Virus record (IMG/VR): IMGVR_UViG_3300002098_000012
Location: 1-40,407 of that record
Origin: a virus
Taxonomy: Duplodnaviria; Caudoviricetes
Strand: one strand, 5' to 3'
Length of the DNA: 40,407 bases
Under the pieces are notes generated by a model. The model searched no databases. It saw nothing but the letters and a program-made list of their open reading frames with translations, and was not told the DNA's origin. Positions 12,959-18,397 of this stretch are shown piece after piece. How positions within the stretch are numbered: position 1 is the first letter of the stretch; every line of letters starts with the position of its first letter. Position numbers and translations under genes: made by a program.

Positions 12959-13062
12959 AGCGAATTGATTTAGTTGATTTGGGTGCATTTATAGCGATGA
13001 GTGGTTTCGGTGTGGTGATGTATTCAATTGCGTGGGCGTTACTCACTAGGCCGCCGTTATGA
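12955..13062 (+). CDS. 35-aa membrane peptide
   Basis: Hand translation MKRIDLVDLGAFIAMSGFGVVMYSIAWALLTRPPL*; ATGA overlaps at both ends. Confidence 0.55.
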   Translation: MKRIDLVDLGAFIAMSGFGVVMYSIAWALLTRPPL

Positions 13063-13628
13063 GATGGTTTATTAGCGACACGCACTTTGGTCATGCGAAT
13101 GTTATAGAGTATAGTGGTCGTCCTTTTGAGCATGTGCAGCAGATGGACGACGTGATGATTGCGAGATGGAATAAGACAGTTGGTGAAGATGATGATGTGT
13201 TTATGCTTGGGGATTTTGGATTATCAACTACTAGCTATCTTACTGATATATTTCATGCTCTCAAGGGTAACAAAATACTGATTCGGGGAAATCACGACGG
13301 TACAGTTAGCAAGATGAAGAGGATTGGCTTCGCTACGGTCTTAGAAGAAGCGACAATCTTGATCGACGGGTATGAAGTGCGCATGGTTCATTACCCGAAG
13401 ATGGGAGGAGCTGACCTTCTAACGTTGCATGGACACGTGCATGAGAAGGGAACTCCCTTTTTTCATGGTATGCAAGCGTGTATGTGTGTCGAATTGTGGA
13501 ATTATACGCCTGTTAGCGAGAAAACAGTGCAAAAATTGATAAAAAAGTGGGTAAAAGATGGAAATTCGTGTAGTAGGAGAACCTCTGATCGAGGCGGTCC
13601 AGCAGATGCAAGAGGCAGCCAAGTATGA
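13059..13628 (+). CDS. Calcineurin-like metallophosphoesterase
   Basis: SDTHFGH, LGDF, RGNHD, HYP, HGHVH. Confidence 0.92.
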   Translation: MRWFISDTHFGHANVIEYSGRPFEHVQQMDDVMIARWNKTVGEDDDVFMLGDFGLSTTSYLTDIFHALKGNKILIRGNHDGTVSKMKRIGFATVLEEATILIDGYEVRMVHYPKMGGADLLTLHGHVHEKGTPFFHGMQACMCVELWNYTPVSEKTVQKLIKKWVKDGNSCSRRTSDRGGPADARGSQV

Positions 13629-14721
13629 AGCGAGTTATGCTGCCCTTATGGCCGACCATCACATTGGTTATAGTGTTCCTGTTGGAGGCGTTATTGCTTA
13701 TGAATCCAAAATCTGTGTTAACGGGGTGGGATTTGATATTGCTTGTGGGAATAAAGCTATTCGCGTGGATTCGGATGCTGATGGGGTTAAAAGTAACATA
13801 TATAGAACGATGAACGAGGTGCAGAAGCACATTAGTTTCGGAATGGGAAGAAAAAATGAGGATAGAGTAGACCATGAGTTGTTTGATGATCCTTTATGGA
13901 ATGATATCCCTTTGCTTCGTGGTCTTAAAGATAAAGCTATGGCGCAGTTGGGAACGGTGGGATCGGGCAATCACTACGTGGATATTTTTACTGACGAGCT
14001 TAATCGCATTTGGGTGGGGGTTCATTTTGGCTCACGTGGTTTGGGGCATTCGATTTGTACACATTTTATAAAAGAAGGGGGAGGTAAAGATGGAGTTCAC
14101 GCAACGCCGGTTATTTTTAGTGAGGATTCAGACCTCGGAGAACAGTATCTTAAGTGCATGGAACTCGCTGGTAGATATGCTTACGCGGGTAGAGATTGGG
14201 TTTGTTCAAGGGTTGCAAAAATACTTAGAGCAAACATCGTTGAGCAAGTACATAACCACCATAATTTTGCCTGGAAAGAGCGGCATTTTGATCGAGACTT
14301 ATGGGTTGTCAGAAAAGGAGCTACACCTGCTTTCCCAGGTCAGAAAGGATTTGTCGGAGGCTCTATGGGAGATATTTCAGTCATCTTTGAGGGCGTCGAA
14401 TCCGCAGAATCACCAGCACTATTATACTCAACAGTACATGGAGCAGGCCGTGCGATGGGAAGAATGCAAGCAAAGGGTAAAAGAGATCGCCGCGGTAATG
14501 TCACCAGAGAAGGTTTGGTTAACAAAGACCTGCATGATGCTTGGATTAAGAATGCCGGAGTCGAAGTGCGCGGAAGTGACCTCGACGAGTCCCCTTATGC
14601 CTATAAACGCATTGAGCAAGTTCTCGCAGCGCATGCTTCTACAATAAAGATACTACATACTTTGCAGCCAATAGGGGTATGCATGGCAGATGGAAGAGAA
14701 TGGGACCCATATAAGGATTAG
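13558..14721 (+). CDS. rtcB: RtcB RNA ligase (2',3'-cyclic/3'-phosphate to 5'-OH)
   Basis: DHHIGY.VPVGG, VGFDIACG, GTVGSGNHY, HFGSRGLG, HHN, RKGA, GSMG, HGAGR, DESPYAYK. Confidence 0.97.
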   Translation: MEIRVVGEPLIEAVQQMQEAAKYEASYAALMADHHIGYSVPVGGVIAYESKICVNGVGFDIACGNKAIRVDSDADGVKSNIYRTMNEVQKHISFGMGRKNEDRVDHELFDDPLWNDIPLLRGLKDKAMAQLGTVGSGNHYVDIFTDELNRIWVGVHFGSRGLGHSICTHFIKEGGGKDGVHATPVIFSEDSDLGEQYLKCMELAGRYAYAGRDWVCSRVAKILRANIVEQVHNHHNFAWKERHFDRDLWVVRKGATPAFPGQKGFVGGSMGDISVIFEGVESAESPALLYSTVHGAGRAMGRMQAKGKRDRRGNVTREGLVNKDLHDAWIKNAGVEVRGSDLDESPYAYKRIEQVLAAHASTIKILHTLQPIGVCMADGREWDPYKD

Positions 14722-14729
14722 GAGGAGAG

Positions 14730-14915
14730 ATGACATTAGGTGAACATGATAGAAACATTCTTAAAGAAATTAGAGAGTTATTGGTGGAGCTTCTTAGGTG
14801 TAATAAGCAGGCTTTAGAATATATAGTTAGAAAGAATAATAGAAACGCTAGATCAAGTATTAAATTGTTACATGAACAACTTAACATTTTGGAAGAGATG
14901 GAAGATAGGGACTAA
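14730..14915 (+). CDS. Hypothetical coiled-coil protein between the two RNA ligases
   Basis: AGGAGG SD; TAATG coupling to the ligase. Confidence 0.65.
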   Translation: MTLGEHDRNILKEIRELLVELLRCNKQALEYIVRKNNRNARSSIKLLHEQLNILEEMEDRD

Positions 14916-15883
14916 TGGATGAAGGTTTAGTATACGTAGGCAAAATTATCGCCATCGATGCTATTCCCAACGCAGATCAGATCGTTAGCGCGACTGTTGT
15001 GTGTGGCCACGGGGGGAAGTGGAAGGGAGTAGTTCGAAAGGCAGAGTTAGGTTTGAATGATTTGTGTGAGGTTTATTTACCGGATGCGTTAGTGCCAGAA
15101 GATGATGTGCGCATGAAGTTTATGGCTTCTAGTCACTGGCGCGTCAAGATGAGAAGGTTTCGTGGCGCTCCGAGTGAAGTAGTGATTATGCCACTTCTAA
15201 ACCCACAAGATGGAATTTGGTTAGGCTATGATATTACGGAATTCAAAGGAGTTACTAAATATTCCAAGCCAGTTCCGGCGCATTTACAAGGTCTTGCGAA
15301 AGGTAACTTCCCAGGATTCATTCCAAAGACAGATGAGCTTAATTATCAGCGGCATTTCGATCTTGTGGATCAATTGCATGGAAAGCCTTATTACATAACA
15401 GAGAAAACAGACGGTTCATCAACCACTGCATTTCGCTATAAAGGACAGTTCGGTTTGTGTAGTAGGAACCTTGAGCTTCAATTCAATGCTGACAATGGCT
15501 ATTGGGTTGTGTGCAAGAAATATGGTGTAGAGGAGAAGCTTCCGGAAGGTTACGCGTTGCAGTGGGAAACTTGCGGCCCAGGCATTCAGAGTAATCCGAT
15601 GGGCCTTAGTGCGATTGATGGCTTTGCGTTCAGTGCATATAAGATTGATGAGCACAGATATCTTAGTATGCAGGAACTTGTGAATCTCTGTAAGAAGCTA
15701 GAGTTTCCTATGTGTCCGATTCTTGAGCATGGATTCACGTTTGATAAAGAAGGTATTGAGCTAAAAGGCGAAGGTAAGTATTCAAACGGAAGAGAAAGAG
15801 AAGGTGTGGTAATTCGTTCGCAGGAAAACATTGGAACCATGCCCATTAGTTTCAAAGTTATTAACCTAGGATACGAGAAATGA
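14915..15883 (+). CDS. ATP-dependent RNA ligase, DRB0094/Rnl5-like, with N-terminal OB domain
   Basis: I..IPNADQI N-terminus; FP.FIPKTDE; motif I TEKTDGSS; E..GPGIQ.N; REGVV; FKVIN. Confidence 0.92.
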   Translation: MDEGLVYVGKIIAIDAIPNADQIVSATVVCGHGGKWKGVVRKAELGLNDLCEVYLPDALVPEDDVRMKFMASSHWRVKMRRFRGAPSEVVIMPLLNPQDGIWLGYDITEFKGVTKYSKPVPAHLQGLAKGNFPGFIPKTDELNYQRHFDLVDQLHGKPYYITEKTDGSSTTAFRYKGQFGLCSRNLELQFNADNGYWVVCKKYGVEEKLPEGYALQWETCGPGIQSNPMGLSAIDGFAFSAYKIDEHRYLSMQELVNLCKKLEFPMCPILEHGFTFDKEGIELKGEGKYSNGREREGVVIRSQENIGTMPISFKVINLGYEK

Positions 15884-16056
15884 AGTGGATAGGCAAGCAT
15901 CCTCCTGTTTATATCTATCTAGATGACGAATGGGAAAGAGAGTCTGATCATAAGTTATTTAAACCCAATGAGAAGAAACATGGTTGGGTAGCAGATGATG
16001 GTGAAACAATTGAATGGCACAAGAAAGCAAAAGTAATGAGGAAGAAGAATTTATGA
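15880..16056 (+). CDS. 58-aa hypothetical protein (MKWIGKHPP...)
   Basis: Hand translation; ATGA overlaps with the ligase stop and the groES start. Confidence 0.55.
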   Translation: MKWIGKHPPVYIYLDDEWERESDHKLFKPNEKKHGWVADDGETIEWHKKAKVMRKKNL

Positions 16057-17770: not shown

Positions 17771-17813
17771 TAGTAGTTTGGCGAGTATCTACTTAAAAAA
17801 AACCTCCATCATC

Positions 17814-17887
17814 GCTGTGAGTAGCTTAGTGGTAAAGCAGCACCCCTTACACGGGAGCGCACGTGAGTTCGAATCTCACCTCCGGCG
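17814..17887 (+). tRNA. Atypical tRNA-Val(TAC)
   Basis: D arm GCTT/AAGC, loop CTTACAC, T arm GTGAG-TTCGAAT-CTCAC; acceptor GCTG(T)GAG/CTCCGGC has a bulge; A-A mismatch in the anticodon stem. Confidence 0.7.
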
Positions 17888-17988
17888 ACAATTTTGGCAC
17901 AAGAACTGGCCTGTCTAGCCATAGATGGTATCCAAGATAAGTCCAACGACAGTTTCCCCAGTAAAAGTCGTTAAATACCTGGGATTTC

Positions 17989-18092
17989 GAAGAAGTAACT
18001 CAGTTGGTAGAGGGGCGATGAGCATCCAGTACCGTAAAAGGTGGAGCGGTTGTTTTCATGCAGTGTCGTGGGTTCGAGTCCCACCTTCTTCA
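17989..18092 (+). ncRNA. 104-nt tRNA-like RNA with a ~47-nt irregular anticodon arm; identity unassigned
   Basis: Acceptor GAAGAAG/CTTCTTC, D loop AGTTGGTA, T arm GTGGG-TTCGAGT-CCCAC. Confidence 0.75.
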
Positions 18093-18326
18093 ATGGGATC
18101 AGTTGTAAAAGTATATAAAAAAGAAAAGCATGTATCATGGCAAGCTAGAATTTGTCGTGTTGGCATACCTAAGTTGACTCTATCATTTTGCACTTATGAC
18201 GAGGCTTCTGATTGGTTAAATGAAAATGAAGAATCGTATATAAATAATCCTGAGTTGTTTATGAAAGAATTCAATAGATTAAAAGAGTTACGAGGAAGAA
18301 GAAAGAAGAGGAATGGAAAGATTTAG
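18093..18326 (+). CDS. 77-aa AP2/integrase-arm-like DNA-binding protein between two tRNA genes
   Basis: SWQARICRVG.P...SF.T..EA..W motif; ATG directly follows the tRNA-like 3' end. Confidence 0.6.
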   Translation: MGSVVKVYKKEKHVSWQARICRVGIPKLTLSFCTYDEASDWLNENEESYINNPELFMKEFNRLKELRGRRKKRNGKI

Positions 18327-18397
18327 GGTCTATAGTGTAGCGGTTAGCACAGGAGGTTTTCAATCTCTTAGCGCAAGTTCGAATCTTGCTAGGCTCA
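18326..18397 (+). tRNA. tRNA-Glu(TTC), no encoded CCA
   Basis: Acceptor GGGTCTA/TAGGCTC, anticodon arm GGAGG-TTTTCAA-TCTCT, T arm GCAAG-TTCGAAT-CTTGC. Confidence 0.88.

Follow-up and report, generated by a model that had tools for sequence, protein, structure and literature searches.

A modular block of RNA ligases, phosphoesterases and tRNA-like RNAs in the terS-terL interval of a 40-kb phage

The viral record IMGVR_UViG_3300002098_000012 (Duplodnaviria; Caudoviricetes), analysed over its full 40,407 nucleotides and henceforth referred to as the window, has direct terminal repeats and represents a complete 40.4-kb phage genome. Between positions 13059 and 18397 its plus strand carries a run of genes for two RNA ligases (RtcB and an Rnl5-type ATP-dependent enzyme), two metallophosphoesterases and five tRNA-type RNAs, two of which have oversized arms. 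Comparison with relatives indicated that the genes form a modular assembly, made up of enzymes of known kinds and probable tRNA mimics of a known kind, rather than a dedicated maturation system. The reading that is modestly favored is that of a modular accessory block, placed in the interval between terS and terL, that protects translation by resealing tRNAs with two ligation chemistries and by supplying non-decoding tRNA-mimic RNAs. New elements are a family of long-arm RNAs (family B), a recurrent pseudoknot spacer, an odd Val-like tRNA family and the pairing of Rnl5 with an MPPED2-like phosphoesterase in small phages.

Ligases, phosphoesterases and their inheritance among relatives

The block lies in the terS-terL interval, with terL at 18613 and the gene at 10623-11123 taken as the putative terS from its position. 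The genome also encodes a P22-like portal, a major capsid protein and a XerD-like recombinase, and has no close cultured relative, since capsid identity to the nearest cultured phage is at most 31%. Relatives comprised 48 viral loci with terL 73–96% identical, and gene content between terS and terL, counted across 35 intervals, differs widely between them. Whole records used for co-occurrence were chosen mostly by terL, with G033 and G034 added for family B; the near-complete set contained 20 genomes including the window phage, while locus L218 stood outside the whole-record set. All co-occurrence counts ignore kinship between genomes.

The first-pass annotation had described a metallophosphoesterase, rtcB, a small open reading frame (ORF), an Rnl5/DRB0094-like ligase, groES, a second metallophosphoesterase and five tRNA-type genes as one co-oriented run at 13059..18397, and every one of these genes was found at its place on the plus strand. 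Spacing between the protein genes is −71 to +9 nt, with a single exception of 86 nt, and the catalytic motifs are intact in RtcB, the ligase and both phosphoesterases. RtcB (13558..14721, plus strand) matched PF01139 over the cut-off with 222 bits, and its D, C and His motifs for metal binding and guanylylation/GMP binding were located. The Rnl5-type ligase (14915..15883, plus strand; 322 aa) joins PF09414 at residues 158–315 to a PHA02142 OB domain, with the PF21189 OB module at residues 5–93 (27.6 bits against a cut-off of 27) and no C-terminal appendage. Naegleria Rnl5 (NgrRnl) is its best PDB match (E 4e-30), motif I reads KTDGSS, and a full-length match to TIGR02306 (DRB0094) fell below the equivalog cut-off (99.9 vs 151.15 bits). 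Domain order and motifs are common to this ligase and the Rnl5 family members DraRnl (DR_B0094) and NgrRnl; phage homologues of Rnl5 are already in print (PMC4408790).

Metallophosphoesterase 2 (16406..17077, plus strand) has MPPED2 as its best PDB match (E 3e-33) and also matches the PADLOC defence candidate model PDC-S10 (E 3e-65), for which matches in two jumbo phages have been reported (bioRxiv 10.64898/2026.04.22.720137). Metallophosphoesterase 1 (13059..13628, plus strand; PF00149; phrog_547, E 6e-43; aq_1665-like) overlaps rtcB by 71 nt. It had no homologue in 270 loci apart from copies of the window genome and, by this sequence comparison, is private to the window phage.

The relatives were found to carry the ligases and the RNAs largely independently, which speaks against the single dedicated system of the first-pass annotation and is the outcome it had itself listed as contrary evidence. 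Of the 20 near-complete genomes, 3 had intact RtcB, 7 had Rnl5 and 4 had a short PF09414 ligase; tRNAs occurred in 13 and family B in 3. Genome G008 (100% complete) encodes RtcB and Rnl5 with no Rfam tRNA, and family B is missing from G018, which also encodes both ligases. Conversely, G019 (100% complete) carries family B but lacks RtcB and any PF09414 ligase; an RLIG1-type ligase together with a HAD phosphatase stands in for them. In G025 a different long-arm RNA is present, and both RtcB and PF09414 are missing. Remnants of rtcB stand beside a retained family B RNA in G014 (81 residues) and L218 (53 residues). No association with RtcB was detected in these small numbers for family B (p 0.40) or for tRNA genes (2/3 vs 11/17, p 1.0). 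A second sample was picked by RtcB, with 34 longer records of 80 loci searched and 27 of them near-complete at 34.5–41.6 kb; a PF09414 ligase was present in 12 of these 27 genomes compared to 8 of 17 RtcB-negative genomes (p 1.0). The point that such gene sets are mostly described in much larger phages lost its force, given RtcB in these 27 records and in 61-kb cultured phages, which are among the 661 GenBank phage records with RtcB.

The only statistically linked pair was Rnl5 and the MPPED2-like phosphoesterase. A PF00149 gene accompanied Rnl5 in 6 of 7 near-complete genomes and was present in 1 of 13 genomes without it (Fisher p 0.001, or 0.007 if a fragment in G005 is scored as absent). 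With partial records included, and G007, G026, G033 and G034 left out, the counts were 12/14 vs 1/17. The close gene co-occurrence seen in the window is subclade-wide and looks inherited; the subclade has a support of 87 in a quick terL tree of otherwise low support. Within the 35 intervals the ligase slot holds Rnl5 in 14 and the short PF09414 form in 7. At locus L029 an RLIG1-type ligase (1044-1685) and a stand-alone HAD-PNKP phosphatase (4097-4705) replace Rnl5 and the metallophosphoesterase. The refilling of the slot by different proteins suggests repeated selection for RNA sealing.

The same interval could instead be a general accessory-gene hotspot in which the enzymes serve unconnected functions and the RNAs are carried along on their own: Rnl5 would seal RNA-primed nicks in DNA or in duplex RNA, the phosphoesterases would destroy cyclic-nucleotide signals and RtcB would repair rRNA or mRNA. 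The failure of RtcB to predict either a PF09414 ligase or tRNA genes fits this explanation, as do the groES, ParA, HNH, Band-7 and outer-membrane genes that share the interval, the private phosphoesterase 1, the PDC-S10 match of phosphoesterase 2 and the DraRnl phenotype described below. It is nevertheless regarded as possible rather than probable, because four RNA-ligase types recur in one interval near tRNA clusters and because, within the clade, phosphoesterase 2 accompanies Rnl5 more often than chance would give.

Long-arm RNAs and tRNA genes

The presence of five tRNA-type genes, two with oversized arms, was borne out by ARAGORN, Rfam and a cloverleaf scanner. ARAGORN and Rfam detected three: a canonical tRNA-Asn(GUU) at 17575-17646, taken as 17575..17647 in the gene assignment, with U73 and no encoded CCA, a Val(UAC)-like tRNA of an odd recurrent family at 17813..17889, assigned to 17814..17887, and a canonical tRNA-Glu(UUC) at 18326..18397. 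The cloverleaf scanner located the remaining two, a 122-nt RNA at 17649..17770 and the 104-nt family B RNA at 17989..18092; all five are on the plus strand. A slightly stricter scanner returned 0 hits in 20 shuffled windows. Rfam reported nothing but tRNA in the window and in 15 relative loci. Folding energy by itself did not separate the 122-nt and 104-nt RNAs from shuffles (z −0.97 and −1.18); the argument that they are real is based on the landmarks of a tRNA and, in the case of the 104-nt RNA, also on covariation.

Family B has a tRNA core in which a long hairpin with bulges replaces the anticodon arm. Scans of the fetched loci, of viral contigs (12 stretches) and of metagenome contigs (42 stretches) yielded 38 distinct pattern contexts, of which 26 were dropped as chance and 12 retained as distinct, truly tRNA-shaped members. 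In their alignment 95% of cells are paired, compared to 42–56% in slid controls. Double changes were observed in 13 of 27 pairs, among them 6 of the 7 acceptor pairs and 5 of the 11 long-arm pairs; since the members are related, the counts lack independence. In the core, U8, A14, G15:C48, G18G19 and the T loop are conserved. In the arm, a 2-bp stem is followed by a bulged G, an ATGAG/TTCAT stem, a UU bulge and a 4-bp stem, after which there is frequently a UGGU bulge and then a free hairpin. A covariance model scored the members at 89–114 bits and ordinary tRNAs from 150 sources at no more than 60. No window ORF tracks family B across 12 relatives. Family B is absent from Rfam. A description of it was not met in the literature, and it may be among the 10,006 candidates of Fremin 2023, going by the available part of that paper (PMC10690425).

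The 122-nt RNA has a 7-bp acceptor, a class-II D arm, a 34-nt arm in the anticodon position, a 33-nt variable arm and a T arm, and its stems are perfect. It had no homologue in the fetched loci, nor in viral contigs by exact 19-mer. Neither long RNA was matched among the 25 listed of 241 GenBank phage matches, all of which fell on the Asn tRNA. Because the long arms far exceed a 17-nt anticodon arm, decoding is unlikely, and both RNAs are likely non-decoding tRNA mimics.

Two known classes were considered for these RNAs and rejected. Allo-tRNAs (Mukai 2017) are defined by an 8/4 or 9/3 acceptor branch (PMC5389517; PMC7609411), and both long RNAs show 7/5. YrlA resembles them in having a tRNA core and a long stem in the place of the anticodon arm; it is permuted, with a closed acceptor stem and free ends on the long stem, and lies beside Ro60, the gene being expected within about 4 kb (PMC4201824, in its available sections), whereas the window RNAs have an open acceptor, supported in family B by covariation at 6 of its 7 pairs. 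The YrlA motif GNCGAAN0-1G, which belongs on the strand ahead of the V and T arms, was not found there in family B; a near match sits after the D arm on the opposite strand and is altered in L011 and L020. No Ro60/TROVE match was found among 39 proteins of the window phage, all large ORFs of the region included.

The first-pass annotation had further suggested that the ligases act on the adjacent RNAs, the long arms being introns or precursors that are cut by a small-ORF product or a host nuclease and then joined into working tRNAs. The co-orientation and tight spacing of the genes, and the role of RtcB as the splicing ligase of other organisms (PMC4408790), agree with such a scheme. It was nonetheless largely refuted. 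A single excision produced a canonical anticodon arm (5-bp stem, 7-nt YUNNNR loop) from 0 of 12 family B arms, compared to 484 of 2400 shuffled arms, and the 122-nt RNA gave one poor product, only when shifted off its perfect stem. The bulge-helix-bulge motif has bulges on opposite strands, and the two conserved bulges of the family B arm are on the same strand. Family B is also intact where rtcB has decayed, and no endonuclease family was found among the 39 scanned proteins. Ligase-driven splicing or maturation is unlikely in view of the excision result, and the scheme as a whole is now very hard to credit.

Another possibility is that the long-arm RNAs are loose partners of any RNA ligase, in which case they would serve as a scaffold, or as a decoy that is renewed because host nucleases nick its long duplex arm and the ligase closes it again, similar to the pairing of Y RNA with Ro60. 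The carriers lend this, and the link of ligases and RNAs in the first-pass annotation, some support: of the nine family B carriers with enough context, eight have some RNA ligase (the window, L001, L016, L043, L021, L218, L029 and L127), the ninth, L162, having none in 20 kb. A long duplex would also suit a nick-sealing ligase. Against it, ligases are common anyway (12 of the 20 near-complete genomes, and 9 of the 17 without family B), four of the carriers form one subclade, no window protein tracks family B and the ligase type varies by carrier. The loose partnership is judged improbable. Equal doubt attaches to its more specific form, that family B is a natural tRNA scaffold and renewable decoy with a host-matured core, its bulged stem baiting tRNA-cutting defence nucleases and being resealed by the phage nick-sealing ligase. 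If true, this would provide a function for the class of T4 RNAC and T5 RNA1-2 and a first natural substrate for Rnl5.

Bacterial tRNA-Asn normally carries G73. In the window and six relatives, U73 and G1-C72 were present in all seven tRNAs with a GUU anticodon, and their charging identity is therefore uncertain. The Val-like family often has an anticodon stem of 6 positions, a U3:G70 pair and C37, and its anticodons drift between UAC, CAC, AAC, AAU, UAU, GAU and UGC; the middle anticodon base is A in 10 of the 11 aligned sequences. Carriers are the window, L001, L006, L011, L016, L027, L043, L168 and L213.

A predicted H-type pseudoknot (17945..17983, plus strand; CGAC/GTCG with CCCAG/CTGGG and an A-rich linker), missing from the first-pass list, ends 5 nt ahead of the 104-nt RNA gene. 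It recurs with changed pairs in five relatives (L001 ~9554-9590, L043 ~9284-9320, L006 ~1311-1355, L036 ~9027-9068 and L016 ~9285-9325). The recurrent form has a CG-TTAAA linker and a second stem of 5–6 Watson-Crick pairs in five different sequences, and in 5 of 6 cases the distance from its end to the following tRNA-type gene is 4–9 nt. The spacer is not in Rfam. It resembles part of the pistol ribozyme, and its assignment as a ribozyme was rejected because the other pistol helices are missing. A hammerhead-like core (CTGATGA...GAAAC...GTC) was noted at ~9440-9510 of L016, in a 280-nt spacer of the tRNA cluster; its stem II is mismatched and it had no Rfam match even at E 5. A hammerhead scan of the window found none and Rfam was negative, leaving ribozymes unsupported as a source of RtcB substrates.

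Further RNAs were observed in the tRNA clusters of relatives. A conserved RNA of ~150 nt, which begins like a class-II D arm and has a 3' end resembling a pseudoknot, is present in L043 (8997-9151), L027 (9525-9686), L168 (6015-6175), L045 (~9757) and L233 (~9452), and in L043 it replaces the 122-nt RNA of the window. Other long-arm tRNA-shaped RNAs of unrelated sequence were seen in the small phages L106 (5180-5284), L122 (1902-2020), L136 (8326-8457), L152 (5684-5812), L039 (9425-9520), L089 (6754-6863) and L138 (8759-8867).

Proposed role in tRNA repair and relation to known systems

By analogy with the biochemistry of the enzyme families, tRNA repair against ribotoxins would be the likeliest job of the ligases. 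RtcB joins 3'-phosphate or cyclic ends, ATP-dependent ligases need 5'-phosphate and 3'-OH, and phages are described that combine both (PMC7824862). Joining by RtcB ligases depends on GTP and Mn and takes a 5'-OH as the partner end. Rnl5 seals duplex nicks with a 3'-OH RNA and a 5'-phosphate but acts poorly on single strands (PMC4408790). Cleavage of tRNA anticodon stems by the Toprim nuclease OLD leaves 5'-phosphate and 3'-OH, and T4 Rnl1 and Rnl2 resealed a single OLD nick with no healing step (PMC12445682). If expressed and active in the manner of their families, RtcB would rejoin tRNAs cut to cyclic-phosphate and 5'-OH ends and the Rnl5 ligase would close stem nicks that have 5'-phosphate/3'-OH ends, the targets being host tRNAs cut by antiviral defences. 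The MPPED2-like phosphoesterase that travels with Rnl5 would probably clear blocked 3' ends, and the Asn and Glu tRNAs would probably replenish the cut host pool. The long-arm RNAs, which retain U8, A14, G15:C48, G18G19, the T loop and a 7/5 acceptor branch, may be processed by host tRNA enzymes and would most likely serve as decoys or as stable carriers of the conserved bulged stem, comparable to T5 RNA1/RNA2 and T4 RNAC.

In line with the first-pass annotation, neither a 5' kinase nor a splicing endonuclease was found. PF13671 exceeded its cut-off in 0 of 34 records, the window genome included, with three weak matches at ParA-sized genes, and no splicing endonuclease family was present among the 39 scanned phage proteins. 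The suggestion that a small ORF supplies these activities gained no support, as no kinase- or nuclease-like small ORF was found. Fold comparison covered ORFs 15880 and 12112, where weak or missing matches do not prove differing folds: the predicted fold of ORF 15880 gave a best PDB Z of 4.2, one uncharacterised phage match in BFVD and no Atlas match, and that of ORF 12112, which occurs without ligases also, gave a best Z of 4.8 and no clear match. The DUF3310 gene is independent of the ligases and is not a P-loop polynucleotide kinase. The two calcineurin-like phosphoesterases, with intact motifs, are candidate 3'-end enzymes. Neither a kinase nor a splicing endonuclease would be needed if the two ligases act directly on two different kinds of ends; the simplest reading is that they cover two classes of tRNA break in this way, which would explain the missing kinase.

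Several observations weigh against tRNA repair. A double cut by OLD is beyond repair by T4 Rnl1 and Rnl2, Rnl5 lying outside that study as far as its available text goes (PMC12445682). DraRnl is tied to genome recovery after radiation and not to tRNA, and the physiological substrates of Rnl5 are given as unknown in the available part of the same source (PMC5397189). A 3'-healing enzyme without a 5' kinase leaves a heal-and-seal path incomplete. The PDC-S10 match of phosphoesterase 2 fits signal degradation equally well, so that its role may be either 3'-end cleaning or signal destruction. Outside the clade the link of Rnl5 to the phosphoesterase is less marked (13 of 21 loci picked by Rnl, without dereplication), and the presence of some ligase in nearly all family B carriers also favors a looser bond between ligases and RNAs. 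Ligases occur in genomes without tRNA genes (G005, G008), and co-location in the block therefore reflects a hotspot as much as a pathway.

Among known systems, the jumbo-phage RNA-repair sets of Iyer et al. 2021 (PMC7824862) similarly combine RtcB and an ATP-dependent ligase with tRNAs and phosphoesterases. Those sets, as far as described in the available part of that paper, use Rnl1 or Rnl2 with HAD or 2H enzymes, whereas the window is a 40-kb genome with Rnl5 and calcineurin-like phosphoesterases in which no polynucleotide kinase was found. DraRnl adjoins a DEDDh-like gene in place of the MPPED2-like phosphoesterase that adjoins the window Rnl5 (PMC5397189). The T4 Pnk-Rnl1 system against PrrC has the same proposed purpose, undoing tRNA cleavage by a host defence; the window differs in having neither a 5' kinase nor an Rnl1-type loop ligase, and its RtcB would act in one step.

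The long RNAs have their closest structural counterparts in T5 RNA1 and RNA2 and T4 RNAC, all of which lie in a phage tRNA cluster and have acceptor and T arms around an enlarged centre. T5 RNA1 (30501-30644) is built like the 122-nt RNA, its D arm being followed by a long arm, a long variable arm and the T arm, and T5 RNA2 (32959-33083) is built like the 104-nt RNA, a long arm going together with a variable arm that is short; in NC_005859.1 both are annotated as tRNA-like stable RNA, functions unknown. T4 RNAC is at 70908-71046 of NC_000866.4, and its function is stated to be unknown in the available part of PMC9697503. None forms a sequence family with family B, whose model gave 13.7 bits for RNAC and 10.9 bits for RNA1, with RNA2 unlisted, compared to the scores of true members given above. 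T4 and T5 have no RtcB, unlike the window phage.

Kinase-free tRNA repair by two chemistries is suggested to be common in small uncultured phages and not only in jumbo phages. In the 40-kb group, RtcB, ATP ligases of three types, phosphoesterases and several families of non-canonical RNA are naturally present or absent in many combinations, which should ease tests of the function of tRNA-like stable RNAs and of the natural substrate of Rnl5.

Further features of the interval

The remaining genes are all on the plus strand, and several were missing from the first-pass list, namely the ORF at 15880-16056, the basic ORFs at 17046-17360, the DUF3310 gene and the ORF at 18093-18326. A 61-aa ORF at 14730..14915 belongs to no family and was found in close relatives only. 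The 58-aa ORF at 15880..16056, predicted to be all-beta, is present in 6 of the 35 intervals, all six RtcB-positive, and so tracks RtcB within the clade (6/6). The groES co-chaperonin gene (16053..16319; PF00166) is present too in intervals without intact RtcB. Two small basic ORFs at 17046..17360 are frequent in the interval regardless of ligases, and the DUF3310 gene (17360..17584; phrog 'nucleotide kinase') occurs in 16 of 35 intervals with ligases present or not. A 77-aa ORF of no family (18093..18326) splits the RNA gene cluster. A 65-aa basic protein (L003 8579-8782 and relatives) is encoded by most RtcB-positive clade members, is lacking from the window and is rare at other RtcB loci.

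The unit ends ahead of terL with a terminator-like hairpin at 18506..18530 on the plus strand, a consensus match of a kind found 3 times in the region compared to 4.7 times in shuffles. A conserved hairpin at 18450-18500, between the last tRNA and this terminator, is shared with L043 and L231.

The sole GTDB match of the clade is L168/L248 ~5075 (G035), at the start of a 242-kb contig in an Acidobacteriaceae metagenome-assembled genome. Phage and host DNA are joined there mid-gene just past terS, which makes an assembly chimera likely and the host evidence weak. The closest cultured RtcB (58%) likewise comes from an acidobacterial phage.

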